A DNA stretch of 64,000 nt from Minisyncoccia bacterium (GCA_047639355.1 JBLIOC010000001.1:3215-67214), one strand, 5' to 3'; positions 34,321-50,912 are shown, numbered from the stretch's first letter. Numbers and translations are program-made. The notes: generated by a model not told the origin, from the sequence alone.

Positions 34321-37170
34321 ATGTTTATGCATAAGCGTTTTAAGCACAATGAAATAGAGGAGAAGTGGCAGACTAAGTGGAAAACTGACAAACTTTACCG
34401 AACCACAAACAACTCTGCCAAGCCAAAAGCTTATGTGCTTGACATGTTCCCGTACCCATCTGGTGAAGGTCTACATGTAGGACACCCTAAGGGATATATC
34501 GCCACCGACATCTATTCCCGGTTCAAGCGCATGACTGGCCACGAAGTTCTTCACCCAATGGGTTTTGATGCTTTCGGCTTACCGGCTGAAAACTATGCGA
34601 TTAAAAACAAAGTGCACCCACGAGAGGCAGTAGAAACAAATGTTGCTCGTTTTAAGGAACAGCTTGAGGTTCTAGGTTTTGATTATGATTGGGATAGAGA
34701 AGTAAACACCACTGACCCTGAATACTACAAGTGGACACAGTGGATTTTCATACAGCTTTTCAAAAAAGGATTGGCATACGAAAGTTATGAGCCAATCAAC
34801 TGGTGCCCCGGCTGTCAGACTGGCTTGGCAAACGAAGACTTGGAAGCAGACGGCACTTGTGAGCGTTGTGACTCAGTTGTAGAAAAACGACCGATGAGAC
34901 AATGGGTTTTAAAGATTCGCGAGTATGCTGACCGAATGCTTGAGGATTTAAACACGTTAGACTGGCCTGAACATATAAAAGAGGCCCAGCGCAACTGGAT
35001 AGGGCGCTCTGAAGGCGCAGAAATCGACTTTGAGCTGTCTGTAGGTGAAAAGCTATCAGTATTCACAACCAGACCAGATACTCTCTACGGAGCGACTTAC
35101 ATGGTAATTGCTCCAGAGCATAAGCTTGTTCAAAAATACAAAGAACAAATCACTAACTGGACGGAAGTCGATACCTACATCACAGAGGTGAAAGACAAGA
35201 AAGAGATGGACAGACTGGATGACACTAAGGAAAAGACAGGGGTAAAACTAGAAGGAATCACAGCAACAAACCCAGCTAGCGGAGAAGAGATTCCTGTATA
35301 CATCGCAGACTACGTACTAGCAAGCTACGGAACAGGAGCGATTATGGCTGTTCCTGCCCATGATGAGAGAGATAATGCTTTCGCTAAGAAGTTTGGGATT
35401 CATATCAAACAAGTCGTAACTACAATTTTTAACCATAATTCTGAACGTGATGAAAAGGTAAGACGTGGTGTATATGCACTACTTGAGAATGATGATGATG
35501 AGTATTTGATTCAACAAATTACCCTGCCTGCAAAGAATGGTGATGGTGCTTTCTATTGGCTACCTGGAGGAGGTGTAAACGAAGGTGAAAATGATACGGA
35601 TACTCTAAAAAGAGAAGTTTTGGAAGAAACAGGATATCTTGATTTTTGTGTCAAAGAAAAAATTACTAGGGTTCTATATGACTACTCCGATGGAGCACCA
35701 AGACAAGGTAGAAAGGTTGTTGACGTTTACCATGTAAAACTAAAAAGTGAGAAGAGGGAAGAAATTCAATTAGACGAAGACGAAATTAAATGGGGTCTCG
35801 AATCACAATGGGTTAAAAAAAGTGATCTGCAAAGCACTCTAAAAAATGGATCTCCCGAACGATCAAAATTGATACAGTTTGTTGTTGATGTACACAACGG
35901 TCTGGTTTCTACACAATCTGGAGAACTAATGAACTCAGAAAAATTTGATGAAATGACTTCTAAAGAAGCAGGCAAAGCCATTGTAGAAAAAGTTGGTGGA
36001 CGAATGACTACTACTTATAAGATTAAAGACTGGGTATTTTCTAGACAACGTTATTGGGGAGAACCGATTCCAATAATTCACTGTGAGAAGTGTGGACCTG
36101 TTGCTGTGCCAGAAAGTGAACTTCCTCTCGTCCTGCCTGAGGTTGAGAACTACGAGCCAGCTGGTGACGGACAATCTCCTCTCTCCAACATTGATGAGTG
36201 GGTAAACACTACTTGTCCGGCTTGTAACGAACCTGCAAAACGAGAAACCAACACCATGCCACAATGGGCGGGTTCTTCGTGGTACTACTTGCGATACATG
36301 GATCCTAACAATGATAAGGCGTTAGTTTCGAAGGAAAATGAAAAGTATTGGGCACCAGTTGATGTCTATGTAGGAGGTGATCACGCTGTTCGTCATCTTA
36401 TTTATGCTCGTTTCTGGCACAAATTTCTTTACGATATTAATGTCGTAAGTACTATCGAACCGTTTCAACGACTCGAATTTCTAGGTTTCATTCTCGCTGA
36501 AGACGGACGAAAAATGAGTAAGCGGTGGGGTAACGTAATCAACCCGGACGACATTGTAAAATTAGTTGGAGCTGATACGTTGCGCGTTTATGAAATGTTC
36601 ATGGGACCGTTCGAGAACGTTATCGCATGGAGTCAGGACGGTTTGGCTGGTTCTCGCCGCTTCTTAGAACGAGTGTATGGTTTGTCGCAACATATTCAGG
36701 ATGAAGAGCCAAAGGAAGTGACAACTCTACTGCACAAGACAATAAAGAAGGTTACAGATGATATTGAAGGTTTTAAGTTCAATACTGCAATTAGTGCGAT
36801 GATGATATTACTTAATCAGGCTGAAAAGACAGGTATTAGTAAGGAAGGGTACAGGTCATTTCTTAAATTTTTGGCCCCTTTCGCTCCGCATCTAACTGAG
36901 GAGTTGTGGGCGGAAAATGGAAATATGACCAGTGTTCATACAGACGACTGGCCAGTTTACATCTCTAGTTTGGCCCAAGATGATGTGGTAACTATTGGCG
37001 TCCAGATCAATGGCAAAATGCGTGGAGAAATTTCTATTTCCCCAAAAGCAACACAGGTAGAAGCAATGGAAGAAGTTGGTGGAAATCAGTCTCTTTTGGC
37101 AAAGTTTGATAGCGCTAAAATTAAAAAAATAATCTATGTTCAGGGTAGAATCATCAATCTCATAATTTAG
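34321..37170 (+). CDS. leuS: Leucyl-tRNA synthetase carrying an inserted NUDIX hydrolase domain
   Basis: HIGH motif (HVGHPKGY), CP1 editing motifs (TTRPDT; GTGAIMAVPAHDERD), KMSKS (RKMSKR). An inserted ~150-aa domain at about nt 35440-35905 carries a perfect Nudix box (GGVNEGENDTDTLKREVLEETGY). Confidence 0.93.
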   Translation: MFMHKRFKHNEIEEKWQTKWKTDKLYRTTNNSAKPKAYVLDMFPYPSGEGLHVGHPKGYIATDIYSRFKRMTGHEVLHPMGFDAFGLPAENYAIKNKVHPREAVETNVARFKEQLEVLGFDYDWDREVNTTDPEYYKWTQWIFIQLFKKGLAYESYEPINWCPGCQTGLANEDLEADGTCERCDSVVEKRPMRQWVLKIREYADRMLEDLNTLDWPEHIKEAQRNWIGRSEGAEIDFELSVGEKLSVFTTRPDTLYGATYMVIAPEHKLVQKYKEQITNWTEVDTYITEVKDKKEMDRLDDTKEKTGVKLEGITATNPASGEEIPVYIADYVLASYGTGAIMAVPAHDERDNAFAKKFGIHIKQVVTTIFNHNSERDEKVRRGVYALLENDDDEYLIQQITLPAKNGDGAFYWLPGGGVNEGENDTDTLKREVLEETGYLDFCVKEKITRVLYDYSDGAPRQGRKVVDVYHVKLKSEKREEIQLDEDEIKWGLESQWVKKSDLQSTLKNGSPERSKLIQFVVDVHNGLVSTQSGELMNSEKFDEMTSKEAGKAIVEKVGGRMTTTYKIKDWVFSRQRYWGEPIPIIHCEKCGPVAVPESELPLVLPEVENYEPAGDGQSPLSNIDEWVNTTCPACNEPAKRETNTMPQWAGSSWYYLRYMDPNNDKALVSKENEKYWAPVDVYVGGDHAVRHLIYARFWHKFLYDINVVSTIEPFQRLEFLGFILAEDGRKMSKRWGNVINPDDIVKLVGADTLRVYEMFMGPFENVIAWSQDGLAGSRRFLERVYGLSQHIQDEEPKEVTTLLHKTIKKVTDDIEGFKFNTAISAMMILLNQAEKTGISKEGYRSFLKFLAPFAPHLTEELWAENGNMTSVHTDDWPVYISSLAQDDVVTIGVQINGKMRGEISISPKATQVEAMEEVGGNQSLLAKFDSAKIKKIIYVQGRIINLII

Positions 37171-37241: not shown

Positions 37242-38300
37242 TTGAGCAATCAAACCCAACCTTCTAATATTAATATGATTTCATTTAAGCCTAAACAAAT
37301 AAGTAAGACATTGCTTGAAGTTCTCCCTGAAAGAGCTTGTGACGTACTCGAAAAACGCTATGGTCTTGGTAAAGATGGTGAGACATTCACACTTGAAGCT
37401 ATTGGCCAGTCTTACGGGATTACACGTGAGCGTGTTCGTCAGATTGAGAATTACGGTATCCAGTCAATTCAAAAGTCTGAAGTTTATAAAAAGAGTTGTG
37501 ATCTTTTTTTAGAAATGCAAAAACTCATTGACCAACTTGGTGGAGGACTTATAGCCGAACACGTTTTGCTGGATGAACTTAGTGATGACCCAATTACACG
37601 TAACCACCTCTACTTTATTTTGATAGTAGGCGATCCTTTCTACAAAAGTAAGGAGAACCCTCATTATACTCATCGATGGTTTACAGAACGAAAGACAGCT
37701 GACTCTGTAGAAAAAGCACTCAAAAATGTTTATAAAAATCTTAATCGCGACGAGTTAGTCAGCGAGATCGATATTATAAGTCGCTTCAGAACAGAATTGG
37801 TCGAATTGTCAGATAGTCACGACGATCAAGTGTTAAGACGCTGGTTGCAAATCTCTAAACAGATCGGCTGTAACCCGTTAGGTGACTGGGGTCCTGCAGA
37901 AAGTCCAAATATTCGCGTTAAGGGAATTCGTGACTACGCTTATTTGTCAGTTAAACGTCATGGTTCTCCAATGCACTTCCGTGAAGTGGCAAATACTATC
38001 AACGACCTTTTTGATCATCAGGCTCATGTTGCAACGACTCATAATGAGCTAATTAAGGACTCACGTTTTGTATTGGTTGGACGAGGGCTATACGCTCTAA
38101 CTGAATGGGGATACACAGCTGGTGTAGTAAAAGATGTCCTTCACGGAGTTCTAGAACAAGAGGGTCCACTTTCCCGTGAAGAACTAATCGATAAAGTTCG
38201 TAAGGAGCGATACGTGAAGGACAATACTATTCTTGTTAACCTACAGGACACCAGTCTATTCAGAAAACTTGCAAACGGTACTTATACATTAGCTGAATAA
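37242..38300 (+). CDS. Hypothetical protein with an N-terminal sigma-70 region-4-like HTH and a C-terminal HARE-HTH-like winged helix
   Basis: N-terminal LEAIGQSYGITRERVRQIENYGIQSI (sigma r4 signature). C-terminal MHFREVANTIN ... SRFVLVGRGLYALTEWGY resembles the RNAP-delta/HARE-HTH motif (..F..VGRGLFGLREW). Confidence 0.55.
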   Translation: MSNQTQPSNINMISFKPKQISKTLLEVLPERACDVLEKRYGLGKDGETFTLEAIGQSYGITRERVRQIENYGIQSIQKSEVYKKSCDLFLEMQKLIDQLGGGLIAEHVLLDELSDDPITRNHLYFILIVGDPFYKSKENPHYTHRWFTERKTADSVEKALKNVYKNLNRDELVSEIDIISRFRTELVELSDSHDDQVLRRWLQISKQIGCNPLGDWGPAESPNIRVKGIRDYAYLSVKRHGSPMHFREVANTINDLFDHQAHVATTHNELIKDSRFVLVGRGLYALTEWGYTAGVVKDVLHGVLEQEGPLSREELIDKVRKERYVKDNTILVNLQDTSLFRKLANGTYTLAE

Positions 38301-38336
38301 GTTTCTTGTAGAGTAAGATCATAACTTCTGCTTGTT

Positions 38337-38375
38337 AAACGAGCGACTGGACATCTGTCTAGTCGCTCGTTTTTC
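38337..38375 (+). terminator. Rho-independent terminator
   Basis: 11-bp stem AACGAGCGACT / AGTCGCTCGTT, followed by TTTTT. Confidence 0.75.
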
Positions 38376-38395
38376 ATGGTGTACAATACTAATAT

Positions 38396-39715
38396 ATGAA
38401 GGATTCGTATAAATCTTTAATAGTAAATCTAGCAGCCCCATTTTTTCTACTGATTGCCTTTTGGGTAATGTATGAAGCCTTTACTTTACTGCAGGTTGAT
38501 TTAAAACCAATTCTAGCTATAGTTTTGACACTGTCGCCAGTCTGGCTACCTATATTGTTGTTTTATATTTTATTTGATATGTGGTCCTGGTTTATACACT
38601 TAAAGTTTCAAGTAGAAAATGGAAGAACAACACTTCGTATCAAACTTCCTCAGGAAGTTTTCAAATCACCAGAAGCCATGGAAAGTGTTTTTTCACAAAT
38701 TCACAACTCGGGTCGGGCTGATAACCTTATGCAAACATATCTAGACGGTAGGCATGCACTTATAAATAGCTTTGAACTTGTCTCGATCGGGGGAGATGTT
38801 CGTTTCTACGTTAATGTTCCCACCAAAAAAATAAAAAACACCGTAGAGGCACAGCTCTATGCTCAATATCCTGGCATTGAAGTGGTGGAAGAACCGGTAG
38901 ACTACACTTCCGAAGTTGTTTGGGATCCAAAAATATGGGATTTCATTTCTTTTCATTTGGTAAAGAAGGATGAAAGTTTGTTTCCAATCAAAACGTACGT
39001 TGACTTCGGTATGGATAAGCTTCCGAAGGAAGAGTTAAAATTCGAACCAATGGCGGCGTTAATAGAACATCTCGGTAAAGTAAAACCGCACGAGCGGATT
39101 TGGGTACAAATATTGATGACGGCGCACGACAAAGAATCGTTCACCACTGGAAGTTTAAAAACTGTTCCGACTTGGGAAGGAAAAGCGTACTCTAAAATTA
39201 ATGAGATTATGAAACGGGATCAGTCTCATTTGGGTGCTGAGGAAACAGAAAGCAGGCCAGTTCTTACAATGTCAGAGCGAGACACTATCGCTGCGATAGA
39301 GCGTAACGTATCGAAACATGCTTACAATGTATCAATTAGAGCGATGTACATAACCGAAACAGGAAAATTCGACGCTGATATGATTAGTCCGTTGCTGAGA
39401 TCATTTTCGCAGTACGATGTTATTGGTAGGTCCGGTATCGGTGTACGGTGGCGAACTGATTTTAACTATAATTTTATTTCTGATTACTCTGGACGAAGAA
39501 AATACTTTATGAAAAAAAATGAACTTGAATCATACAAAGCTCGATTTTACATACCTGGTGATAAGAAGAAAGGGGCAGATGCTATGAAAGTTATGTCCGT
39601 TGAAGAATTAGCTACTATTTACCATATTCCAGGTACTTCAGTTGTGACTCCTAATCTCTCTCGAGTTGAATCAAATCGAAAAGAAGCGCCACCTAACCTA
39701 CCTATTGAACAATAA
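38396..39715 (+). CDS. Hypothetical membrane protein (2 N-terminal TM helices plus a ~370-aa soluble domain)
   Basis: Hydrophobic N-terminus. No P-loop or other recognised motif. C-terminal SVEELATIYHIPG. Confidence 0.5.
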   Translation: MKDSYKSLIVNLAAPFFLLIAFWVMYEAFTLLQVDLKPILAIVLTLSPVWLPILLFYILFDMWSWFIHLKFQVENGRTTLRIKLPQEVFKSPEAMESVFSQIHNSGRADNLMQTYLDGRHALINSFELVSIGGDVRFYVNVPTKKIKNTVEAQLYAQYPGIEVVEEPVDYTSEVVWDPKIWDFISFHLVKKDESLFPIKTYVDFGMDKLPKEELKFEPMAALIEHLGKVKPHERIWVQILMTAHDKESFTTGSLKTVPTWEGKAYSKINEIMKRDQSHLGAEETESRPVLTMSERDTIAAIERNVSKHAYNVSIRAMYITETGKFDADMISPLLRSFSQYDVIGRSGIGVRWRTDFNYNFISDYSGRRKYFMKKNELESYKARFYIPGDKKKGADAMKVMSVEELATIYHIPGTSVVTPNLSRVESNRKEAPPNLPIEQ

Positions 39716-39727
39716 ACTTACTCTTGT

Positions 39728-40759
39728 ATGACTGACGAACCGTTTCAATTCACACCTGAGTGCCGTAATAAAAACAAACATAAGAAAAGTTCTTATGTTG
39801 GCAAAGTACTGAGCTTGACTGCTGCATTAATATTCGTTGCAATTATTTTATTAGGTGTATCATATTGGTACGCAAGTGTATTAAATGAACCTCCGGCAAA
39901 TTTTCCTGTCAATAAATCAATCATTATAGAAAAAGGGACTGATGTTATGGAAATCACTGAAATACTTGAACAGGAGGGTGTGGTCAGGTCTAGTGTATTA
40001 TTGTATTACACTTTAGTTTTATTTCATGATTCAACTGACGTTAAGGCCAGCTCCTATGTTTTTGAAAACCCACTCTCAGCTTTTGCTGTAGCAGAACGTC
40101 TGACTCAGGGAGATTTCGACACAGACTTAATACGCTTTACTCACTTTGAAGGAGAAAGGGTGACGATATTGGCCAAGAGAGCAGAACAAGCTCTGCCCAA
40201 CTTTGATGTAAAAGCATTCATAGCAAGTTCCACACCGCATGAAGGTAAGTTGTTTCCTGACACATACTTCATTCCAACTGAATATAATGACGCTGAGCTG
40301 CTGATTTTACTGTTAGATACTTTTGAACAAAAAATTGCAGGATTTGACGAGCAGATTCAAGTATCGGATTTAACTCTAGATGAAATACTAGTTCTAGCTT
40401 CCATTATCGAACGCGAGGCTAACACAGCTGAATCTAAAAAGGCAATTTCAGGAGTCTTCAAAAACCGAATGAACATCGGTATGGCGCTACAAGCTGATGC
40501 TTCAATTGAATATATTTTAGACAAGCCGTTATCAGAACTTACCCCTGACGACTTAGAAATTGATTCCCCTTATAATACTTACCTCTACCTCGATCTACCT
40601 CCGACCCCAATTGGAAATCCTGGCTTCGATGCAATTGACGCTGTTCTTAACCCTACAGAATCTGAATATTACTATTACATAACTGATAATGACGGAGTCT
40701 TTCATTACTCCAAAACATATTCCGAGCATCTACGTAATATTGAGTTGTATTTACGGTAA
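39728..40759 (+). CDS. mltG: Endolytic murein transglycosylase MltG (YceG family)
   Basis: N-terminal TM helix; YceG core (LASIIEREANTAESKKAISGVFKNRMNIGMALQADAS ... PPTPIGNPG). Confidence 0.85.
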   Translation: MTDEPFQFTPECRNKNKHKKSSYVGKVLSLTAALIFVAIILLGVSYWYASVLNEPPANFPVNKSIIIEKGTDVMEITEILEQEGVVRSSVLLYYTLVLFHDSTDVKASSYVFENPLSAFAVAERLTQGDFDTDLIRFTHFEGERVTILAKRAEQALPNFDVKAFIASSTPHEGKLFPDTYFIPTEYNDAELLILLLDTFEQKIAGFDEQIQVSDLTLDEILVLASIIEREANTAESKKAISGVFKNRMNIGMALQADASIEYILDKPLSELTPDDLEIDSPYNTYLYLDLPPTPIGNPGFDAIDAVLNPTESEYYYYITDNDGVFHYSKTYSEHLRNIELYLR

Positions 40760-40785
40760 GTAAAACACGTGATAGCGTAACCATT

Positions 40786-41847
40786 ATGAATCAAGAGCAG
40801 ACAGTTTTTGTCGGTCTATCGGGGGGAGTAGATTCTTCCGTAGCGGCCCTTCGTTTAAAAAAACAAGGCTTCAATGTCGTTGGTGTTTTTATTAAAGTCT
40901 GGCACCCAAATTTTATGCCATGTAACTGGGAAGGTGAGCGGCTAGATGCAATGCGTGTAGCTGCTCATCTTAACATACCCTTTTTGACGTGTGACGCGGA
41001 GAGAGAGTACCTTGATGACGTAGCAAAGTATTTTATTTCAGAATATAAAGCAGGACGTACACCAAACCCAGATGTCATGTGTAACCAACATGTTAAATTC
41101 GGCGCTTTTCTACGTTTTGCAAAATCCCGCGGAGCTGATTTTATTGCTACTGGCCACTATGCACAAAGAGTAGAAAGTGAGAAGGGTCTAGAACTTCATC
41201 GTGGTATAGACGACAATAAAGACCAGACGTATTTCCTGTGGACATTATCAAAGGAGCAGTTAGAAGCTACTTTATTTCCAATTGGCAATACATCGAAAGA
41301 CAAAATTCGTACTGAAGCTGATGTTGCAAGAATACCAACTGCGCAAAAAAAAGACAGCCAAGGAATTTGCTTCTTGGGACATGTAGACATTCCAGAATTT
41401 CTTTCACACTACATTGAACTAGTTCCAGGCCCAGTTCTCGATGATGAGAATAATGTTATTGGTCGACACGTAGGAACTTTGGTATATACAATAGGACAGC
41501 GCCATGGTTTCACTTTAGATACACAAAATACTGAACGCCAAGCCATGTATGTAGTACATAAAGACAGTATTAATAATACAATAACTGTTTCATCAAAAAA
41601 GCCGACACTCAATAGTTTAGAATTAATAACCTTAGAAAATTTTGTACTTAGACAACTAATTAAGCCGGGTGACACTTTTGAGGCCCAGGCTCGTTACCGG
41701 CAAACGGCATTTGAAGTTTGTGTTGTTAATATCGACAACAGCCAGCTATGTCTTGAGTCAAGAGAAAAAACCGAACAACCAGCTGTAGGGCAGTCATGTG
41801 TACTATATAGGGGAACGGAATGCATTGGAGGTGGTATAGTTGTATGA
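40786..41847 (+). CDS. mnmA: tRNA-specific 2-thiouridylase MnmA
   Basis: PP-loop VGLSGGVDSSVAA, catalytic Cys region (DSQGICFLG) and a C-terminal beta-barrel. Confidence 0.9.
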   Translation: MNQEQTVFVGLSGGVDSSVAALRLKKQGFNVVGVFIKVWHPNFMPCNWEGERLDAMRVAAHLNIPFLTCDAEREYLDDVAKYFISEYKAGRTPNPDVMCNQHVKFGAFLRFAKSRGADFIATGHYAQRVESEKGLELHRGIDDNKDQTYFLWTLSKEQLEATLFPIGNTSKDKIRTEADVARIPTAQKKDSQGICFLGHVDIPEFLSHYIELVPGPVLDDENNVIGRHVGTLVYTIGQRHGFTLDTQNTERQAMYVVHKDSINNTITVSSKKPTLNSLELITLENFVLRQLIKPGDTFEAQARYRQTAFEVCVVNIDNSQLCLESREKTEQPAVGQSCVLYRGTECIGGGIVV

Positions 41848-41921: not shown

Positions 41922-42800
41922 TTGTTAAAAAGCCTCTCTTGTAGAAACCCCATTTTCATACCCATGCCAATCAAAATTAAAAAAGCCGATGGAAAATTAG
42001 AGTTTTTTAAAGTAGAGAAACTCAGACGTTCTCTTCGTCGAGCCGGTGCAGGTCCAGATGAAATAAATGAAATTGTAAGTAATGTTGATAATACGCTTTA
42101 CGACGGTATTCAAACTCAAGAAATCTACAGAAATGCTTTCAATTTACTCACTCATAGCCGTTCGCCAGCAGCAGCTCGTTATTCACTGCGACGTGCTCTT
42201 TTTAACCTAGGTCCGACCGGATTTCCCTTTGAAAAATTTTTAGCCCGGCTTTTCCAGGAAGATGGCTATTCAACACGGACAGGAATCATGCTTCAAGGTA
42301 ATTGTGCACCTCATGAAATAGACGTTGCTGCCTACACTGAGAACCATAGTTTTATCGGTGAAGCTAAATTCCATTCTAGACCTGGTATTAAGTCTGATCT
42401 TCAAGTAGCAATGTACTCGTACGCTCGTTTTCTCGACCTTCGTGACCAAAAAATTTGCCATGAGGATATTTGTGGAATAAAGGAATTTTGGCTAATTACT
42501 AACACAAAGTTTACTAGTACTGCTCAAGACTATGGTAATTGTGTCGGCTTAAATATGCTAAGTTGGGATTACCCAAAACGAAATAATCTACACGATCGGA
42601 TACAGCGTAGTGGAATTTACCCCATTACAGTCCTTCAAAATATTTCTTCGTCCCAAGCTGAGACTTTAATTGCTAGAGACATTATTCTTTGCCGTGACAT
42701 TGTTGATCAAGAGCATGTACTGAGACACCTCCATCTGTCCAAACCAAAGCAAGAAGCTTTGATGCAAGAGGCTCGTGAAATATCCAAGTTCCGATCATAA
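41922..42800 (+). CDS. ATP-cone domain fused to an Mrr-type (PD-(D/E)XK) restriction endonuclease-like domain
   Basis: ATP-cone (IKIKKADGKLEFFKVEKLRRSLRRAG ... TQEIYRNAF). Mrr_cat-like core with D...EAK (HEIDVAAYTENHSFIGEAKFHS). The probable start is the internal Met near 41964. Confidence 0.65.
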   Translation: MLKSLSCRNPIFIPMPIKIKKADGKLEFFKVEKLRRSLRRAGAGPDEINEIVSNVDNTLYDGIQTQEIYRNAFNLLTHSRSPAAARYSLRRALFNLGPTGFPFEKFLARLFQEDGYSTRTGIMLQGNCAPHEIDVAAYTENHSFIGEAKFHSRPGIKSDLQVAMYSYARFLDLRDQKICHEDICGIKEFWLITNTKFTSTAQDYGNCVGLNMLSWDYPKRNNLHDRIQRSGIYPITVLQNISSSQAETLIARDIILCRDIVDQEHVLRHLHLSKPKQEALMQEAREISKFRS

Positions 42801-42893
42801 GCAGTTAAAACTACCATTCTGTCAATGTTTCCGCTGTTTTTTCCTGTGATATACTCTCAATATTACTTAATCAACAAATCATAATCTTTACGT

Positions 42894-43448
42894 ATGGTAG
42901 AAGAAACACAGGACGTGCAGAAGACACTAGTAGCATTTGCCGTCGGACTCCTTATTGGTGGAATGTTGGTATGGGCATTCTCTGGACCAACAGTCAATGC
43001 ACCAGAGGCAACCAATGAAGACGAAGCTGAAGATGTGAACGCTCAAGTAAGAGATACAGACTCACTTATCTCATCTGAAGCAATTGAGTCCGAAGACACA
43101 AAGGCGGAAGAAGTTCCAAAAACGGAACTTAAGGTTGGTAAGGGTAACGTAGTTGTACCAGACCAGAAAGCAAGCGCATCTGTCAAACTGGACAGTGCAA
43201 CTTTCCCTGTCAGTGAAGGTTGGATTGGGATTCGTGAATATGACAATGATCAGCTGGGATATATCCTGGGTGTAGTTCGTTTTAGTGAATCACAAGATCT
43301 GGTTCCTTCCACAATAACTCTCCAGAGGCCAACCTCAGTAGGTAGTCGTTATGCGGTCGTTGTCTTTACTGAAGACGGAGATTTTGCCTTCAATCTAGCC
43401 GGTGACGTACAAATTGACACAATTTTTGATACTTTTGTAGCAAAATAA
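42894..43448 (+). CDS. Membrane-anchored acidic extracytoplasmic protein
   Basis: N-terminal TM helix (LVAFAVGLLIGGMLVWAF), then a Glu/Asp-rich linker and a beta-rich domain. Confidence 0.5.
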   Translation: MVEETQDVQKTLVAFAVGLLIGGMLVWAFSGPTVNAPEATNEDEAEDVNAQVRDTDSLISSEAIESEDTKAEEVPKTELKVGKGNVVVPDQKASASVKLDSATFPVSEGWIGIREYDNDQLGYILGVVRFSESQDLVPSTITLQRPTSVGSRYAVVVFTEDGDFAFNLAGDVQIDTIFDTFVAK

Positions 43449-43530
43449 CTAGTGTTCGAACTTAAGGTTGAAAAGAGCTGGCTTTAGGTCAGCTTTTTCT
43501 TGTCTCCTGTCATAATGCTATACTACAAAC

Positions 43531-44316
43531 ATGGCAGAATATACATACAAATATAATCCAAACAGAAGTGCCGAATGGAACTATGGAGGTGCAAAGTGGA
43601 AGCTTTCGCGCTCCAAAATAGATTTTTTCTTTGAGTGTCCACGATGCTTCTATTTAGATAATGTACTAGGTACAAAACGTCCTGGATTCCCTTCCTTTAA
43701 TCTTAATATTGCTGTCGATGAGCTTTTCAAAAAGGAGTTTGATGTCCATCGTGAAGGACAAACAAAGCACCCGATAATGGATGAGTACGGTATAGACGCT
43801 GTACCATTTCAACATGAAATGATCGACACGTGGCGCGATCCATTTGTCGCGATAACTACAACTCACGAACCAACCGGCTTAACGGTTAGTGGAGGAGTCG
43901 ACGACATCTGGGTAACACCAGAAAAGAAGCTTATAATTATCGACTACAAAGCAACATCTAAAAACGGTAAAATTGATAAGCTCGGTGACAGTCCATGGGA
44001 ACTACAGTATGCAAGACAACTCGGTGTGTACAGATGGCTTTTAGAGCAAAACGGCTTTACAGTCGAAGATACTGGCTATCTTGTCTACGCTAATGCGAGC
44101 AAGGATGAACCAGGGTTTGATAACAAGCTTGTCTTTGAAACTACATTAGTGTCAGTTGAGACAGATGTTGACTGGATCGAACCAGCAATCTACGATATTA
44201 AAAACTGCCTAGATCAAAAAGATTTACCTAAAATTGGCGAAAAATGTGAATTCTGTCCCTACCGTGAAGCCTCAGGAAAGAAGCTCCAGGCTGTTCACTT
44301 TGCTAACAAAAAGTGA
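43531..44316 (+). CDS. Cas4-like Fe-S PD-(D/E)XK nuclease (DUF83/RecB-nuclease family), stand-alone
   Basis: N-terminal ECPRCFYL (compare Cas4 YCPRKFYL). Nuclease motifs GGVDDIW ... IIIDYK and QYARQLGVY. C-terminal CEFCPYRE. Four Cys bracket the nuclease core. Confidence 0.65.
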   Translation: MAEYTYKYNPNRSAEWNYGGAKWKLSRSKIDFFFECPRCFYLDNVLGTKRPGFPSFNLNIAVDELFKKEFDVHREGQTKHPIMDEYGIDAVPFQHEMIDTWRDPFVAITTTHEPTGLTVSGGVDDIWVTPEKKLIIIDYKATSKNGKIDKLGDSPWELQYARQLGVYRWLLEQNGFTVEDTGYLVYANASKDEPGFDNKLVFETTLVSVETDVDWIEPAIYDIKNCLDQKDLPKIGEKCEFCPYREASGKKLQAVHFANKK

Positions 44317-44366
44317 TAAATTAAAATCCTAACAGGAAAAATAAAATCAATATTACTTTTTAAATT

Positions 44367-45140
44367 TTACCTGCGAAAATTCCATCTATTGAAAGCTAGA
44401 AGCAAAAGCGATAACAGTAATCCAAAGAAAAATACACCTCCTCCATCACCCCATAGTCCAAAGCCATTTACGAATAACACAAACAGTACGATTGTGACCA
44501 GAAGCTGGACAGTTACATATTTTTGTCTGAATACAGTTTTTCTAGTTTTGGGTGCATACGCTAAAGCAGTCGGTAACAAGGTAAATAAGAATACAATTGA
44601 GAACATTGCAAAAACTGATTTTTTATAAGAAAAATGACTACTTACAGCAAGTATTTCTTGATCAGCTCTAATTTCTTGATACTTATTAATATCTCCGTCA
44701 GAAATATATTTTGCCATTGAAACAACCTTCTGCACATCCCCATCACATCCTTTAAAATAGTCAGAATCAAGTTCTGCTGAACATCGATTAGATGCTCCTT
44801 GGAGTGAAATGCGCCCACTGATTACGTAAATACCATCAATAGTAAAAACCGAGCTTGTTGCCTGAACCATAGAGACAAATTCTACGCTCAAAGTATTTTC
44901 TCTCATCTCATCATAAGAAGATCCGCAATTCTCGCCATTTGGTCTAGGAACAATCGAAAACGAATCAACACATACGCTGTCTTTACAATACACGTACGAC
45001 TCCTGATGCAGGTTGCCACACCTATACGCTTCAGTATTTGAGGGGTAAGAAAGTACAATTAAACAAGCAAAGGACAAACAAGCAAAAAGATTTTTCATAA
45101 ATAAATGGTACCATGACAGCATGAATGATTTTACACTCAC
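44367..45140 (-). CDS. Secreted Cys-rich protein with C-terminal TM helices
   Basis: Signal peptide (ACLIVLSYPSNTEA), 10 Cys in the ectodomain, two C-terminal hydrophobic helices. Confidence 0.5.
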   Translation of the reverse strand: MSVKSFMLSWYHLFMKNLFACLSFACLIVLSYPSNTEAYRCGNLHQESYVYCKDSVCVDSFSIVPRPNGENCGSSYDEMRENTLSVEFVSMVQATSSVFTIDGIYVISGRISLQGASNRCSAELDSDYFKGCDGDVQKVVSMAKYISDGDINKYQEIRADQEILAVSSHFSYKKSVFAMFSIVFLFTLLPTALAYAPKTRKTVFRQKYVTVQLLVTIVLFVLFVNGFGLWGDGGGVFFFGLLLSLLLLAFNRWNFRR

Positions 45141-45378
45141 GGTTCGCGAAGTGGTCCGTAAAATCCCTAGGGGGAAAGTTATGACCTATTCTGAGGTCGC
45201 CAAAGCAGCTCGAAATCCTAAGGCAGCGCGGGCAGTGGCTAATGTTATGGCTAAGAATTTTGACGAAGGTGTACCTTGTCATCGAGTTATTAGGAGTGAT
45301 GGTAAACTCGGAGGCTACAACAGAGGAGGGGAGGCTGTTAAAAGAAGTTTGTTACTAGCCGAGGGTGCTGTATTATGA
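45121..45378 (+). CDS. Mini O6-alkylguanine-DNA alkyltransferase-family protein (C-terminal DNA-binding/active-site domain only)
   Basis: 85 aa carrying VPCHRVIRSDGKLGGY (the PCHRV active-site motif of the MGMT/Ogt family). Confidence 0.7.
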   Translation: MNDFTLTVREVVRKIPRGKVMTYSEVAKAARNPKAARAVANVMAKNFDEGVPCHRVIRSDGKLGGYNRGGEAVKRSLLLAEGAVL

Positions 45379-45405
45379 TGTTATTAATTTCTTGAACTAA
45401 AATTA

Positions 45406-46008
45406 TTGCGTATGTATACATATAAATTAGAACAAGCTATTAAGGCGGCGGGAATCTTACATCAAGACCAGTTACGAAAAGGCTCTGTACCTTTGCCATA
45501 CATAACGCACCTGATGGCCGTTATGCTTATTTTACGTGATTACACTTCCGAGGAAGACACGCTAGTTGCCGCCCTCCTCCATGACACACTAGAAGACACT
45601 GACTACACAGCTGAAGAATTAAAGGTTGATTTTGGTGAAAATGTAGCTGTTCTAGTTCAAACTTTGACCGAACCGAAAGTTAGGAATGGAGTAGAGGTTC
45701 CCTGGTTGGAGAAAAAAAAGGAATATGCTAAACAACTTCGTAAGGGGAGAATAGAAGCAGTAATGATAGCTGCGGCAGACAAGGCTCATAATTTTCGCTC
45801 ATTAGTAGAGGAATACTACGAAGACCACAACAGATTTCTGCAAGATTTTGGACCACATTTAAGCGATAGGCTAGAAGCGTACCAGACCATATCTAATGCC
45901 ATTAACAGCCGCTTGCCAGATGGTATAGTACATGAGTTCAACAACACTTTTCAAGAATATAAAAATTTCATTTACGATGTCCAAAAATCCCTCACTAAAA
46001 CTGACTAA
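45406..46008 (+). CDS. HD-domain protein, Rel/Spo-type (p)ppGpp hydrolase-like (small alarmone hydrolase)
   Basis: HLMAVMLIL ... VAALLHDTLEDT matches the Rel/SpoT HD_4 signature; 200 aa. Confidence 0.7.
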   Translation: MRMYTYKLEQAIKAAGILHQDQLRKGSVPLPYITHLMAVMLILRDYTSEEDTLVAALLHDTLEDTDYTAEELKVDFGENVAVLVQTLTEPKVRNGVEVPWLEKKKEYAKQLRKGRIEAVMIAAADKAHNFRSLVEEYYEDHNRFLQDFGPHLSDRLEAYQTISNAINSRLPDGIVHEFNNTFQEYKNFIYDVQKSLTKTD

Positions 46009-47299
46009 AAAGAATTTGTTTCCAGGCTTTGTCTTCGTATCGAGCGCTGCTGGAGTTAAAGAATATCTGCTAAAATCAAACGGTCTAAGGGTTTTATACT
46101 TCCATCGGCCTGACACTGGAGTCATTACTACTAATATCACCTACTTGGTTGGAGCTAGAGACGAAGCTCGGGGCGAAACTGGGCTGGCTCATATGCTTGA
46201 GCATATGCTCTTTAAGCCAACGACTTTTGATGTGGCAAATGGTGTCGCGGCCGGTGGAGCGATGCAGTTTGAACGAGAAACTGGTTGTATCCTAAACGCC
46301 AACACTTGGACAGACCGCACTACTTACTTTTTTAATTATCCGGTAGAGTATTTAGCTAACGCTCTTCGAATTGAGTCAGAACGTATGGTTGGTACAATCT
46401 TAACTGACAAAGAACTTAAGCCCGAACAAGGAAATGTGCTGAGTGAATTTGATATGTACAATGGTGACCCTTATTTTGCTCTAGATGTGCAAATGATTAG
46501 TGCTGCTTTTCAGTCGCATCCTTATGGACACGAAACAATAGGCTTCCGTGAAGATATTGAGGATTATAATGCTGAAAAACTGGGTCGATTTTATCGAGAC
46601 TACTACCGACCCGACAACGCTATAATGATGGTCATCGGTGACGTTGATTTAGAGACAGCTCTTAAGTCTGTAAAAAAAGAGTTTAGCTCTATCAAAAAGC
46701 CCTCTTCACCAATTCCACGATTCTCTATTCGTGAGCCCAAACAGGAAGGTTTGCGCCGGGTTGAAATAGAGCGCAATTCAAGTACTAATGTTGTGTCGAT
46801 AGGCTTCAAAAGTGCCCCGTTCCCCTCAAAGGAGTGGTTTATAGCCGGCATAATGTCGGACGTTTTAACCATGGGTCCAGAAAGTATTCTTCATAAATTA
46901 CTAGTTGATACTGGTAAAGCGTCAAGTGTGACTAGCTCTGTAGGGCCTTGCTCTGAAGAATACTTAGTACAAATTATTATTACTTTGGCAACAGATCAGA
47001 ATCATAGAGAAATAGAAGAGTTAACTCTTAATGAAATTAAGACACTGACTTCTAAAACCCTCACTTCATTGGTAAAAAAAGTTAAAGCCAAGATGGTTAC
47101 CGATGAACTCTTTGGACGTTCCCGGTCACTCAGTATTGCTCAAGAACTTACAGAGTACGTAGCTTCGGGAAATTGGGAAATGTACGCCAAAACACCAGAA
47201 ATGCTGGCGAACATCACTGTCAAAGAGGTTGTAGACTGTGTAAAAATGAGTTTCACGAACACTCAGATGACTATTGGCTACTTTAAAGGAATATCTTAA
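45977..47299 (+). CDS. M16 (pitrilysin/insulinase) family zinc peptidase, active subunit
   Basis: Inverted zinc motif HMLEHMLF ... E. The start is chosen at MSKNPSL, giving a 32-nt overlap with the upstream gene. Confidence 0.8.
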   Translation: MSKNPSLKLTKKNLFPGFVFVSSAAGVKEYLLKSNGLRVLYFHRPDTGVITTNITYLVGARDEARGETGLAHMLEHMLFKPTTFDVANGVAAGGAMQFERETGCILNANTWTDRTTYFFNYPVEYLANALRIESERMVGTILTDKELKPEQGNVLSEFDMYNGDPYFALDVQMISAAFQSHPYGHETIGFREDIEDYNAEKLGRFYRDYYRPDNAIMMVIGDVDLETALKSVKKEFSSIKKPSSPIPRFSIREPKQEGLRRVEIERNSSTNVVSIGFKSAPFPSKEWFIAGIMSDVLTMGPESILHKLLVDTGKASSVTSSVGPCSEEYLVQIIITLATDQNHREIEELTLNEIKTLTSKTLTSLVKKVKAKMVTDELFGRSRSLSIAQELTEYVASGNWEMYAKTPEMLANITVKEVVDCVKMSFTNTQMTIGYFKGIS

Positions 47300-47301
47300 A
47301 T

Positions 47302-48588
47302 ATGAAATACCAAATTGACGACAAGGAATCATATTCCTTTGCTAGTATCACGCAAAATAAATCACCAATTGTAACCGCATACTTAACGGTAGATATACAT
47401 AAAGAAAGGACTGTCATCGAACAGGCTGTGCAACAGATGTACTCAGACGCTCTTTTATCGGGTGCTGGAAAGTACACTAGAGACGAATTCTTGAGTGCTG
47501 TTAACTTATTAGGTGCCGGGTTGAGTATATCTATTTCTGATAGCGTACTTACAATTAAGCTAATGTCGACTCTTGCAGAATTTAGTAAATTGCTAAAACT
47601 CACTGAGCTTATGCTTGCCCAACCTAGTTTTCCCAAAGCTCAACTAAATCGGATAAAGAGCACTACGGTTAATCAGCTACAAGAGTCAAAAGAAGACAGT
47701 AAGACGATTGCTATGCAAAAATTACGTAATAATATTTATGGTCAAAATGACCGAAAATACTCATCTGAAACTGATGTGGTTATTTCGACAATCGAGTCGG
47801 TAACAGTGGGTCATTTTAAAAGTTTACATAAGACCGTCTTAGCACAACCTTGGACCTGCTCAATTACTGGTGAGTCCGACGCTGTTAAAGCTTTTGAGCA
47901 AGTTGTCGCTAGACTTAAAAAAATTAAAGGGGGGAGTGTTCCTTTTGTTGGTGTCCACCAGCAAAAACCACCACGACATACCGTAGAAATTAAAAACATT
48001 CCCAGTCGCCACAATATTGATTTCGTTATCGGAGCACCACTACCAATCACACTTCACCATCCAGACCTCATTCCTCTAAGTTTTGCTATTGCGGTACTTG
48101 GAAAGTGGGGAGGTTTTACCGGTAGGCTAATGAGTACTGTGCGTGAACTTGAAGGCCTCACCTACGGTATCTACGGCCGCCCAGAGGGCTTCTCTGGTAC
48201 CGAGCAGGGGTACTGGCAAATTACTACTTTTTTTGCACCAGAGAAAGCTTTACAGGGACTCACTTCGACATTTCGCGAGATTACAAAACTTTACAAAAGC
48301 GGTATTACTGAAGAAGAGTTGGTTAAGTTTAAAACCATCTTGCTGACGCAGCAAACACTTTTAAATGATTCTGCCAGTAGCCTATTGTCTAATTTGCACA
48401 CCTACCATTGCCAAAAATTCACTTTGGAGGAAATGATTACCCATAAGGCGCGCATATCTACAGTTACTCTTGATGAGGTAAATGAAACAATTAAAACTTA
48501 TCTAGATCCAGCAACCCTCACCATCAGCGCAGCTGGTCCGGTTGGCACTGTTAAAAAAGACATCCAAAATTTTATTAATAGTGTGTAA
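47302..48588 (+). CDS. M16 family peptidase, second (probably non-catalytic) subunit
   Basis: Length and position fit an M16B pair; it lacks the HxxEH motif. It starts 3 nt after the partner's stop. Confidence 0.7.
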   Translation: MKYQIDDKESYSFASITQNKSPIVTAYLTVDIHKERTVIEQAVQQMYSDALLSGAGKYTRDEFLSAVNLLGAGLSISISDSVLTIKLMSTLAEFSKLLKLTELMLAQPSFPKAQLNRIKSTTVNQLQESKEDSKTIAMQKLRNNIYGQNDRKYSSETDVVISTIESVTVGHFKSLHKTVLAQPWTCSITGESDAVKAFEQVVARLKKIKGGSVPFVGVHQQKPPRHTVEIKNIPSRHNIDFVIGAPLPITLHHPDLIPLSFAIAVLGKWGGFTGRLMSTVRELEGLTYGIYGRPEGFSGTEQGYWQITTFFAPEKALQGLTSTFREITKLYKSGITEEELVKFKTILLTQQTLLNDSASSLLSNLHTYHCQKFTLEEMITHKARISTVTLDEVNETIKTYLDPATLTISAAGPVGTVKKDIQNFINSV

Positions 48589-48598
48589 TAATACTTAT

Positions 48599-48874
48599 AT
48601 GAATTTACTATTTTGGGGGTTGACTATAAGTATGCTGGGGAAAGTTATGCTCGCAGTTGGTGTATTAATTGCCCACACAGAGTTAGCTCATGAACGAAAA
48701 ATTGACCAACTCGTATTAAAAAGCTTTAGGATTGAGCACACACTAACTATTGCGGGTCTAGCTTTGATTGTGACCGGTTACGCAATGGAGGTTTATTTTT
48801 ATGATTTTGTGTCCATGCTTACTTGTTTTGGTGACGAGTGTGCACTAGCTGCTTCTGCAATTCTCTCACAGTAA
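48599..48874 (+). CDS. Small membrane protein
   Basis: Three hydrophobic helices. The ATG at 48599 is preferred over the overlapping upstream extension. Confidence 0.45.
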   Translation: MNLLFWGLTISMLGKVMLAVGVLIAHTELAHERKIDQLVLKSFRIEHTLTIAGLALIVTGYAMEVYFYDFVSMLTCFGDECALAASAILSQ

Positions 48875-48971
48875 TTACAGAATAAATGAAGAAGTGCTGT
48901 AAATTTCTACGGTTCCTCTAGACGTACTTGGTTAATTTGTATATATTCAAGTACTTAATTGGTAAAAATAC

Positions 48972-50912
48972 ATGACAGGCAACGACATTCGAAAAAAGTA
49001 TCTAGATTACATGGCCGAAAATGGTCATGCTGTTATACCGTCGGCAGCCCTTGTTCCAGACAATGATCCGACTACACTTTTTACTGGTAGCGGTATGCAG
49101 CCGCTTGTACCATATCTGATGGGCGAGACTCATCCTAAAGGGACTCGGCTAACTGATTCACAGAAGTGTTTCCGCGCTGAGGACATTGAAGAGGTGGGCG
49201 ATAATCGTCACACAACTTTCTTTGAGATGCTTGGTAACTGGTCACTTGGTGACTATTTTAAAGCTGAGCAAATACCCTGGTTCTATTCATTCCTAGTAGA
49301 CAAAGTTGGACTAGATCCGGAAAGAATCTACGTAACAGCCTTTATTGGAGACGAAACAGCCAATGTCCCAAAAGACAAAGAGGCGGTAGAAATTTGGCAA
49401 AGACTCTTTGCTGAAAAAAACGTTTCTAGTGAAGTGGTTGAAATAGGTACGGAAGAACAGGGAGGTGAAAGGGGAATGAAAGATGGTGAACGTATCTTTT
49501 ACTACGACGCTGCTAAAAACTGGTGGACCAGGGCCGGTAAAATTGAAAATATGCCCGTCGGTGAAATTGGTGGCCCGGACAGCGAGGTGTTTTACGATTT
49601 CGGTACCGAACACGATCCCAAGTTTGGTCAACATTGCCACCCTAATTGTGACTGTGGCAGATTTCTTGAGATCGGAAACTCAGTCTTCATGGAATACGTC
49701 AAAACTGAAGATGGTTTTGAAAAGATGCCAAAACAAAACGTCGACTTCGGCGGGGGACTAGAACGTATCTCTGCTGCCGCTAATAACAGCGGTGACATGT
49801 TCAAAATTGATTTACTCTGGAATGTTATTGAGCAAATTCAGACTATTTCGGGTAAAAAATACGAAGAAAACTTAGAGGCTTTTAGGGTCATTACCGATCA
49901 CATTCGTGGTGCTGTATTTATGATTGGTGACAATATTCACCCGGGTAACACAGAACAGGGTTATTTTGTACGCCGTCTATTACGCCGAGCTGTACGTTAC
50001 GCAGATATTTTGGAAATTCCAGCCGGTGAACTTAAAAACTTGGCTGAGAGTGTAATTTCCACCTATGAAGACCACTATGGTAACCTAGCTGAAAAGCGTG
50101 GAGAGATTAAAACTGCTATTACAACCGAGGAGGAACAGTTTCGTAGAACTCTTGAGAATGGCTTGAAACAATTTAATAAAATTTCTCTTCAGGTTCATGT
50201 CGAAACAATAGAAGTTGATGGTAAAAAAGTTATAGATAAAAACAAAGCACCGGTTACAAAAAAAGCCATTAGTGCGCAAAATGCATTTGACCTGTTCACT
50301 ACATACGGGTTTCCAATTGAGTTAACTGTAGAGATTGCCACTGAAAAGGGTTTATTGGTTGATCGACCAGGTTTTGAAAAATTAATGGTGGAACATCGCG
50401 AAAAATCTCGAGCCGGAGCTGAGCATAAATTTAAGGGTGGCTTGGCAGATCATTCAGATAAAGTTGTCGAGTACCATACCACTACACATCTTTTGCTAGC
50501 CGCTCTTCGTCATTTTGTTGGTGACCATGTTCACCAAGCTGGATCAAACATAACAGGGGAAAGATTACGGTTTGATTTTACACATACAGAAAAAGTTGAC
50601 CGTGATACGTTAAATAAAATTGAAGAATGGGTAAATACAGCGATTAAAGCAGGTGGTGATGTGAACTTCGACACAATGACTAAAGAAAACGCAGAGACAG
50701 ACTCAACTATAGAGGGTAGTTTTTGGGACAGATATCCAGATGAAGTGAAGGTCTATACAGTTAAAGGAAAAGACGGTACTGTATTTTCTCGAGAACTTTG
50801 TGGTGGACCACATGTAAGTAAAGTAGACAATATAGCCGGAGTCTTTAAGATTAAGAAAGAGGAGTCATCATCAGCTGGTGTCAGGCGTATTAAAGCAATC
50901 TTACAAGAATAG
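48972..50912 (+). CDS. alaS: Alanyl-tRNA synthetase, short form (646 aa, lacks the C-Ala domain)
   Basis: Class II AlaRS N-terminus (FTGSGMQPLVPY, FRAEDIEEVGDNRHTTFFEMLGNWSLGDYFK). The editing-domain HTTTHLL motif is present. Confidence 0.9.
   Translation: MTGNDIRKKYLDYMAENGHAVIPSAALVPDNDPTTLFTGSGMQPLVPYLMGETHPKGTRLTDSQKCFRAEDIEEVGDNRHTTFFEMLGNWSLGDYFKAEQIPWFYSFLVDKVGLDPERIYVTAFIGDETANVPKDKEAVEIWQRLFAEKNVSSEVVEIGTEEQGGERGMKDGERIFYYDAAKNWWTRAGKIENMPVGEIGGPDSEVFYDFGTEHDPKFGQHCHPNCDCGRFLEIGNSVFMEYVKTEDGFEKMPKQNVDFGGGLERISAAANNSGDMFKIDLLWNVIEQIQTISGKKYEENLEAFRVITDHIRGAVFMIGDNIHPGNTEQGYFVRRLLRRAVRYADILEIPAGELKNLAESVISTYEDHYGNLAEKRGEIKTAITTEEEQFRRTLENGLKQFNKISLQVHVETIEVDGKKVIDKNKAPVTKKAISAQNAFDLFTTYGFPIELTVEIATEKGLLVDRPGFEKLMVEHREKSRAGAEHKFKGGLADHSDKVVEYHTTTHLLLAALRHFVGDHVHQAGSNITGERLRFDFTHTEKVDRDTLNKIEEWVNTAIKAGGDVNFDTMTKENAETDSTIEGSFWDRYPDEVKVYTVKGKDGTVFSRELCGGPHVSKVDNIAGVFKIKKEESSSAGVRRIKAILQE

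Follow-up and report, generated by a model that had tools for sequence, protein, structure and literature searches.

The window analysed here, 64,000 nt of one strand of a Minisyncoccia bacterium genome (GCA_047639355.1 JBLIOC010000001.1:3215-67214), contains between positions 41922 and 46008 a region of six genes, four of which encode a protein with an ATP-cone and a PD-(D/E)XK nuclease domain (hereafter ACN), a Cas4-like nuclease, a minimal MGMT-family alkyltransferase, and a stand-alone HD-domain protein. An earlier note on this DNA, made from the sequence alone, had flagged these four genes as a possible small defence/repair neighbourhood. By our comparison with related genomes, the region is most likely neither a defence island nor a dedicated gene module; it is probably part of a core-genome block that has been inherited vertically, with its genes co-directional, in a lineage of the Paceibacteria, which belong to the Candidate Phyla Radiation (CPR). 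Judged by their sequences, all four flagged genes are housekeeping genes that look single-copy, and the active site of each appears intact. Read in this way, the region is not mistaken for a defence island; the finding would be ordinary if taken as a defence neighbourhood. Its lasting value lies in the ACN family, which comprises about 490 clusters in both domains of life, has invariant catalytic residues, and has no characterised function that we could find.

Gene order within the Paceibacteria and beyond

Over 3,500 homologues of ACN were found in databases; the 120 best hits share 74-90% identity with it and belong to Paceibacteria, Nomurabacteria, and Kaiserbacteria. Homologues of 14 window proteins were located in a clade sample of 80 loci from distinct species-level Paceibacteria genomes, whose ACN proteins are 57-80% identical to that of the window; all presence percentages count only those loci whose contigs reach far enough. 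The gene order in the window reads leucyl-tRNA synthetase (LeuRS), a protein with sigma factor region 4 and HARE-HTH domains, a DUF8128 protein, YceG, MnmA, ACN, a membrane protein of 184 aa (TM184), the Cas4-like nuclease, a lineage-specific membrane protein, MGMT, the HD protein, M16 peptidases, and alanyl-tRNA synthetase (AlaRS). In the clade, the order runs from the sigma-like/HARE-HTH gene through those for DUF8128, YceG, MnmA, ACN, TM184, the Cas4-like nuclease, a facultative MGMT, and the HD protein to an optional M16 pair or other insert, a small transmembrane (TM) protein, and AlaRS. In virtually all of the loci, the genes follow this order collinearly and in the same direction, and the order recurs in 80/80 loci where contigs suffice. 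Individual genes are present in 97-100% of the loci, apart from those for MGMT (86%) and AlaRS (94%), and the flanking housekeeping genes recur as often as the four flagged ones. Co-occurrence in relatives had been set beforehand as a check on the proposed neighbourhood, and the genes do co-occur in the 80 clade genomes, so that their adjacency is not fortuitous within the clade. However, since the co-occurrence takes in the whole block, including the sigma-like, DUF8128, YceG, MnmA, M16, and AlaRS genes, it reflects core synteny rather than a defence set.

Sequence divergence within the clade points in the same direction. The median identities are 68% for ACN, 71% for the Cas4-like nuclease, 66% for MGMT, and 60% for the HD protein, compared to 63% for MnmA and 71% for AlaRS. 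The values of the four flagged genes match those of MnmA and AlaRS, and ACN evolves at housekeeping rates. In all four, the catalytic motifs are retained from species to species, and the flanks are themselves made up of housekeeping genes according to Pfam (LeuRS, YchF, AlaRS, and the M16 peptidases). Nearly every gene of the window lies on the + strand, which makes co-directionality uninformative; an operon inferred from the co-directionality of the block was rejected for this reason.

The comparison was extended to a distant sample of 80 metagenomic loci, which were seeded on a Yonathbacteria-type protein and whose ACN proteins are 35-46% identical to that of the window. We refer to the conserved genes on both sides of the flagged set as the frame; 34 of the distant loci were frame-positive and 26 loci with adequate flanks were frame-negative. 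Among the frame-positive loci, MnmA was found in 96%, the DUF8128 protein in 90%, the sigma-like protein in 89%, YceG in 87%, and AlaRS in 69%, values that are somewhat inflated by the definition of this class through at least one frame gene, while the Cas4-like nuclease was found in 46%, MGMT in 39%, TM184 in 13%, and the HD protein in 4%. A search of the frame-negative loci with profile hidden Markov models detected neither the Cas4-like nuclease nor MGMT, TM184, or the HD protein (0/25, 0/22, 0/25, and 0/21, respectively). Likewise, the ACN contexts of four archaea, a Yonathbacteria genome, and a Planctomycetota contig contain no Cas4-like, MGMT, or HD gene. Yonathbacteria keeps the sigma-like, DUF8128, and YceG genes, MnmA followed by ACN, and AlaRS, with unrelated genes between them. 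This pattern is one of nested erosion of an ancestral gene order, in which the four flagged genes never move together as a set, in contrast to a different combination of ACN with three metabolic genes that does recur in other genomic backgrounds (see below).

Some observations weigh against the core-block reading. In eight distant loci, the genes for ACN and the Cas4-like nuclease are directly adjacent, with gaps of 3-99 nt, and MGMT follows next; the definition of the frame-positive class favours the frame genes, as stated; and promoter and terminator scans of 40.7-46.2 kb yielded signals at or below shuffle expectation. The first of these points bears on an alternative to which we assign a low but real probability, namely that ACN, the Cas4-like nuclease, and MGMT form a co-transcribed DNA-repair or maintenance operon of the Paceibacteria, with nucleases tuned to the (d)ATP pool and with the HD protein and TM184 as later hitch-hikers. 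All three proteins would work on DNA and have retained their catalytic motifs, ACN has the Cas4-like gene as its neighbour in 100% of the clade loci and in 46% of the distant frame-positive loci, and MGMT is directly next in 39% of the latter. Yet the trio was never found outside the inherited frame (0/25 and 0/22) and erodes faster than the neighbouring housekeeping links. Moreover, loci of the Yonathbacteria type replace it by unrelated genes while MnmA, ACN, and AlaRS stay in place, and the partners of ACN differ in every other lineage.

Domain architecture, active site, and fold of ACN

All six open reading frames (ORFs) that the earlier note had placed in 41922-46008 are present at their coordinates, and the domain calls made for the four flagged genes hold by profile and structure matches. 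For ACN, which had been described as an ATP-cone::Mrr-type fusion at 41922-42800, the fusion, the Mrr-type PD-(D/E)XK nuclease assignment, and the D/E-x-K residues were confirmed, whereas the start was corrected. Alignment with 20 homologues places the start at the ATG at 41964 and not at the TTG at 41922, giving a + strand gene of 41964-42800 for a protein of 278 aa. The Pfam ATP-cone domain (PF03477; 34.5 bits against a cut-off of 25.8, E = 3e-8) covers aa 17-91 of the original 292-aa ORF, corresponding to aa 3-77 of the protein (41970-42194, +). At the other end, the AF1548-like C-terminal helical domain (PF22357, AF1548-like_C; 37.4 bits against 23.9, E = 2.7e-9) spans aa 219-273 (42618-42782, +). 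The roughly 140 residues between the two match nothing above the Pfam threshold. The C-terminal two-thirds of ACN, however, match PDB 1Y88, the AF1548 protein of Archaeoglobus fulgidus (phmmer E = 6e-36), and the PD-(D/E)XK nuclease core was assigned to about aa 89-200 on this basis (42228-42563, +). Searched with the isolated core, Pfam Mrr_cat (PF04471) scored 18.2 bits against a threshold of 21, with about 20 residues aligned. Archaeal members of the family do carry PF04471; the relationship of ACN to Mrr_cat would thus lie at the level of a superfamily or family relative, and the Mrr label rests on its relatives.

The predicted active site is strictly conserved. E118 and D120 (E118-x-D120, 42315-42323, +) as well as E133 and K135 (E133-x-K135, 42360-42368, +) are invariant in 159/159 diverse family representatives. 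Retention of the D/E-x-K residues had been named as a check on the nuclease call. In the cone, K7, G10, K19, and Y73 are conserved in 94-99% of the 159 representatives and R26 is likewise conserved. D120, E133, and K135 align to D38, E51, and K53 of AF1548, which were predicted to be catalytic in a protein predicted to be restriction-endonuclease-like in the Global Ocean Sampling (GOS) paper (PMC1821046).

An AlphaFold2 (AF2) model of ACN has a predicted local distance difference test (pLDDT) score of 80 and shows the helices of the C-terminal domain; its cone includes two strands (E4-6 and E12-14) and helices at 17-26, 31-42, and 51-65, in agreement with the four-helix cone fold that begins with a beta-hairpin in RNR and NrdR cones. 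The best Foldseek match of the model is 1y88 (E = 1.9e-15, TM-score 0.77), followed by the ligand-gated PD-(D/E)XK nucleases Cdn1 and Can2. Foldseek also aligned the ACN cone to the cones of the ribonucleotide reductase (RNR) alpha subunit and of NrdR with probabilities of 0.98-1.0 and weak E-values of 0.02-0.08. A phmmer search of the PDB with the isolated cone was dominated by designed helical-repeat proteins, with RNR at E = 0.16-0.44.

These matches place ACN among several known systems without making it identical to any of them. It belongs to the same family as AF1548 (PF22357 and PF04471), with a match over ACN aa 92-273, a shared D...ExK signature, and a shared C-terminal helical domain; natural archaeal proteins of this type also have an N-terminal ATP-cone, although they are only about 35-40% identical over the full length and occur in unrelated contexts. 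As in NrdR, an ATP-cone of matching fold is fused to a module that interacts with DNA. In contrast to NrdR, this module is a PD-(D/E)XK nuclease that is catalytically intact by its residues and not a Zn-ribbon, the cone is N-terminal and not C-terminal, and there are no NrdR boxes or RNR genes near ACN. The type III CRISPR nucleases Can2, Card1, and Cdn1 similarly fuse a sensor of a nucleotide ligand to a PD-(D/E)XK nuclease and include the next-best structural matches, but their CARF domain senses cyclic oligoadenylate whereas the ATP-cone senses a primary metabolite, and they are accessory defence genes whereas ACN is a core housekeeping gene without CRISPR context. Finally, Mrr-type (type IV) endonucleases share the catalytic fold, and relatives of ACN match Mrr_cat, but ACN itself stays below the threshold, lacks the Mrr N-terminal winged helix, and is not located in a variable island.

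Distribution of the ACN family and a possible role in nucleotide salvage

At 50% identity, the whole clade collapses into one representative, while 494 such clusters match the family profile at E<=1e-30; nearly all of 150 listed ACN clusters are 270-290 aa long. A search seeded with AF1548 recovered archaeal proteins of about 265-280 aa that combine ATP-cone, Mrr_cat, and AF1548-like_C, carried by Archaeoglobi, Korarchaeota, Bathyarchaeia, Aenigmarchaeota, and Nanoarchaeota. The crystallised AF1548 chain (1Y88) has no ATP-cone, unlike the natural protein P0121 (265 aa, 99% identical to AF1548), and the original AF1548 gene model was apparently truncated N-terminally by about 79 aa. The fusion of cone and nuclease is ancient. 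As an architecture it is not new: AF1548-family proteins naturally have it, and databases already list them as "ATP cone domain-containing protein" or "restriction endonuclease". The window ACN is a further member of a known, uncharacterised family, of which a truncated structure (1Y88) has been available since 2004.

Planctomycetota homologues of ACN lie upstream of a 1,194-aa SNF2/NOV_C helicase (L088, 8001-12978), the only context we saw that looks defence-like. Some members of the Planctomycetota cluster (P0301, P0397, and P0398) are 462-522 aa long and have an N-terminal extension.

De novo clustering of the neighbours in the frame-negative loci revealed a recurrent set of genes for a metallo-β-lactamase (MBL) hydrolase with β-CASP and RMMBL domains, a Glycos_transf_3/PYNP_C protein of the thymidine/AMP-phosphorylase family (TP), and a protein similar to phosphoribosyl pyrophosphate (PRPP) synthetase, or ribose-phosphate pyrophosphokinase (PRS), as well as Usp and MgtC/DUF4010 proteins. 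Among 72,556 plasmids, ACN matched two, from Pontibacter (Bacteroidota) and Criblamydia (Chlamydiota), and in both it is part of a tight ACN, MBL/β-CASP, TP-family, and PRS operon with overlapping gene boundaries (Pontibacter plasmid NZ_CP021236, L169, 1972-6597; Criblamydia plasmid NZ_LK031773, L170, 8001-12608). The Criblamydia operon is flanked by genes for phosphoketolase, glycogen phosphorylase, and acetate kinase. The same four-gene operon is present in L103, L112, L146, L150, and L153. In total, the full ACN-MBL-TP-PRS set was found in 7 loci and a partial set in 8 more, spread over about 10 lineages at <=56% ACN identity, and in a Bathyarchaeia locus a TP-family gene overlaps the ACN start. 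This is the recurrence that the set of ACN, Cas4-like, MGMT, and HD genes lacks (0/25, 0/22, and 0/21 in other genomic backgrounds). The window ACN is 35-43% identical to the ACN proteins of these operons and has the same length and motifs, but the partner genes are absent from its 64 kb. A related TP-PRS-MBL operon of Bradyrhizobium diazoefficiens (bll3117-bll3115), reported without an ACN gene, is induced under microoxia as a direct FixK2 target, and so is the phosphoketolase-acetate kinase operon of this organism (PMC6515984, PMC9104804). ACN-MBL-TP-PRS looks like a catabolic module for nucleic acids or nucleotides that has not been described before.

As far as its sequence goes, the fusion is best read as a nuclease gated by a cone that acts as a nucleotide sensor, as the earlier note had suggested. 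In NrdR, loading of the cone with ATP or dATP switches the oligomeric state and so controls access to DNA (PMC9110341). By analogy, the ACN cone would bind ATP or dATP, binding would switch the oligomeric state as in NrdR and ribonucleotide reductases, and this switch would gate the access of a nuclease dimer to nucleic acid, such that cleavage would depend on the adenine-nucleotide pool or the energy charge. We infer, from its residues and this analogy, that ACN is an active nuclease gated by adenine nucleotides. The β-CASP, AMP/TP-family, and PRPP-synthetase-like genes are the only neighbours that move with the ACN family as a unit, which favours a salvage role. In the proposed route, ACN and the β-CASP nuclease would release nucleoside monophosphates (NMPs) for the AMP/thymidine-phosphorylase-family enzyme and, in turn, the PRPP-synthetase-like enzyme; ACN would thus provide controlled nucleic-acid turnover feeding nucleotide salvage. 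We tentatively propose that entry into such a nucleic-acid-to-nucleotide catabolic and salvage route, shared by Archaea, CPR, and hypoxia-responsive operons in other bacteria, is provided by the ACN family under the control of energy charge or (d)ATP, and that ACN is an indispensable core gene of the Paceibacteria. CPR bacteria generally lack de novo nucleotide synthesis. Living on salvaged nucleotides, they may have turned ACN into a stand-alone core gene. The core status of ACN in CPR and DPANN-type genomes, together with its operon association with genes of NMP phosphorolysis and PRPP metabolism, suggests a nucleic-acid recycling route in nucleotide-auxotrophic or energy-limited cells. To our knowledge, experiments have so far shown ATP-cones to regulate nothing other than ribonucleotide reduction, in RNRs and NrdR. 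If our proposal holds, ACN would provide the first case of a nuclease under the control of an ATP-cone, which would extend the domain beyond ribonucleotide reduction.

Several points count against this proposal. No MBL, TP, or PRS partner is present within the 64-kb window or the reachable flanks of the clade, and a salvage role in the window organism is an extrapolation across 35-45% identity. In the AF2 model, the linker between cone and nuclease (aa 66-88) has low confidence, which bears on the gating geometry. The nuclease core misses the Mrr_cat threshold, as described above, and literature searches yielded neither an experiment on a member of the family nor a paper describing an ATP-cone nuclease.

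Other functions of ACN have to be weighed against nucleotide-gated turnover. Rather improbable, in our view, is an NrdR-like, nucleotide-sensing DNA-binding regulator of nucleotide-metabolism genes that uses the nuclease fold only to bind DNA: it would follow the logic of NrdR, an ATP-cone plus a DNA-binding module, and ACN heads the ACN-MBL-TP-PRS operon, a position typical of an autoregulated repressor, but the invariance of E118, D120, E133, and K135 is hard to explain without catalysis. We give still less credence to a defence function of the kind suggested in the earlier note, by which ACN would be an Mrr-like (type IV) restriction or abortive-infection nuclease triggered by a change of the nucleotide pool during phage infection, with a solo Cas4 in a small defence island. 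Family members match Mrr_cat, Foldseek shows a fold similar to those of Cdn1 and Can2, which are ligand-gated defence nucleases, and also to those of MspJI and McrC, one Planctomycetota homologue has the helicase neighbour mentioned above, and PADLOC returned a weak CARF_PDDEXK match to ACN (E = 0.02). PADLOC nevertheless identified no system in the region, its only other matches being Cas4 models to the Cas4-like protein. ACN was found neither among 50,697 phage records nor in IMG/VR, and both plasmid copies sit in a metabolic operon. Its position is fixed in 80/80 genomes at housekeeping rates and 57-80% identity, its surroundings lack methyltransferase, CRISPR, and other defence genes, and nothing inserted into the block is recognisable as a defence gene. 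Taken with the co-occurrence of the whole block and the faster erosion of the links between the flagged genes, these results speak against a defence/repair neighbourhood. Marginally lower again do we rate a structure-specific recombination nuclease, that is, an analogue of Holliday-junction resolvases for lineages without RuvC or RecU. JGI labels several family members "Holliday junction resolvase", two archaeal members also match Pfam Hjc, and ACN is a core gene in reduced genomes; Geoglobus, however, has a separate Hjc 2 kb from ACN, and the metabolic operon context is unlike that of a resolvase.

The neighbouring genes

The Cas4-like gene (43531-44316, +, 261 aa) encodes a RecB-family PD-(D/E)XK nuclease that matches PDDEXK_1 (PF12705; 49.8 bits against 22, E = 5.8e-13), whereas all matches to Cas4 models are below threshold (PF01930, 21.1 against 22.7; TIGR00372, 39.5 against 65). 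As in Cas4/AddB-type proteins of the RecB family, PD-(D/E)XK motifs (D...DxK...QxxxY) and four cysteines are conserved, here in 75 sequences, but the cysteines are arranged CxxC...CxxC and not, as in canonical Cas4, as one N-terminal and three C-terminal residues. No solved relative was detectable by sequence. A repeat search found no CRISPR array in the window, and there are no cas genes among the neighbours. The protein would be a candidate for DNA end processing. Two clade loci have 3.8-kb insertions between TM184 and the Cas4-like gene (L027, 11501-14665; L035, 11156-14374), with a cytoplasmic, helix-rich protein of about 1,050-1,070 aa directly upstream of the latter. The two inserted proteins are 45% identical to each other and could be a partner of the Cas4-like nuclease or unrelated cargo. 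They have no Pfam domain and are not recognisable as defence proteins, and the insertions were rejected as defence cargo.

The 85-aa MGMT/Ogt protein (45121-45378, +) is a minimal catalytic domain (PF01035, 99.8 bits, E = 7.7e-29; TIGR00589, 78.3 bits against a cut-off of 46). Its PCHRV motif with Cys53 (45277-45279) is invariant in 62 homologues, and it matches the C-terminal domains of Ada and AGT in solved structures. In contrast to Ogt and AGT, for which the matched stand-alone chains have about 150-210 aa, it lacks the usual N-terminal domain; alkyl transfer by this minimal domain is accordingly putative. It would act as a suicide alkyltransferase in O6-alkylguanine repair.

The HD protein (45406-46008, +, 200 aa) matches HD_4 (PF13328; 66.4 bits against 27.2, E = 3e-18). 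Among solved structures, it is closest to stand-alone alarmone hydrolases (7QOC, E = 3e-22), with Mesh1 and SAH also matching. The HD...ED...DK..N motifs are conserved in 68 sequences and, as in Mesh1/SAH proteins, neither a synthetase domain nor regulatory domains are present, which suggests that it is a small alarmone hydrolase.

Hydropathy supports the two interleaved secreted or membrane proteins that had been reported. TM184 (42894-43448, +) has one N-terminal TM segment (aa 8-26) and no Pfam family above the cut-off; it lies beside ACN in 79/79 clade loci compared to 4/31 distant loci and is fixed only in the clade of the window. The second, a cysteine-rich protein of 257 aa encoded on the minus strand between the Cas4-like and MGMT genes (44367-45140), has a signal or TM segment and three C-terminal TM segments. 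It is lineage-specific: homologues were found in 0/80 clade loci, and the only one, with 93% identity, is in the nearest relative (L171). The 5' end of its gene overlaps the MGMT start by 20 nt.

Upstream, the frame comprises the Sigma70_r4 and HARE-HTH protein, a 439-aa protein, YceG/MltG, and the tRNA 2-thiouridylase MnmA (37242-41847, +; Pfam). Together these four are the most persistent part of the frame across the Paceibacteria. The sigma-like protein has 352 aa and about 78% identity across the clade; its gene and that of the 439-aa protein occupy 37242-39715, and DUF8128 is recorded for the orthologues of the latter in L087 and L171. Downstream, the frame consists of two M16 peptidase-like proteins, a small TM protein, and AlaRS (45932-50912, +; Pfam). 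Taken as its longest ORF, the first M16 peptidase gene shares 77 nt with the 3' end of the HD gene (45932-46008), and its true start is probably an internal ATG.

LeuRS (34321-37170, 949 aa) contains a NUDIX domain directly after the editing domain (PF00293, E = 5.6e-13, aa 381-517). The LeuRS of the nearest relative has 806 aa and no NUDIX match on record, and divergent matches to the insert, with 29-40% identity, occur in a few other loci.

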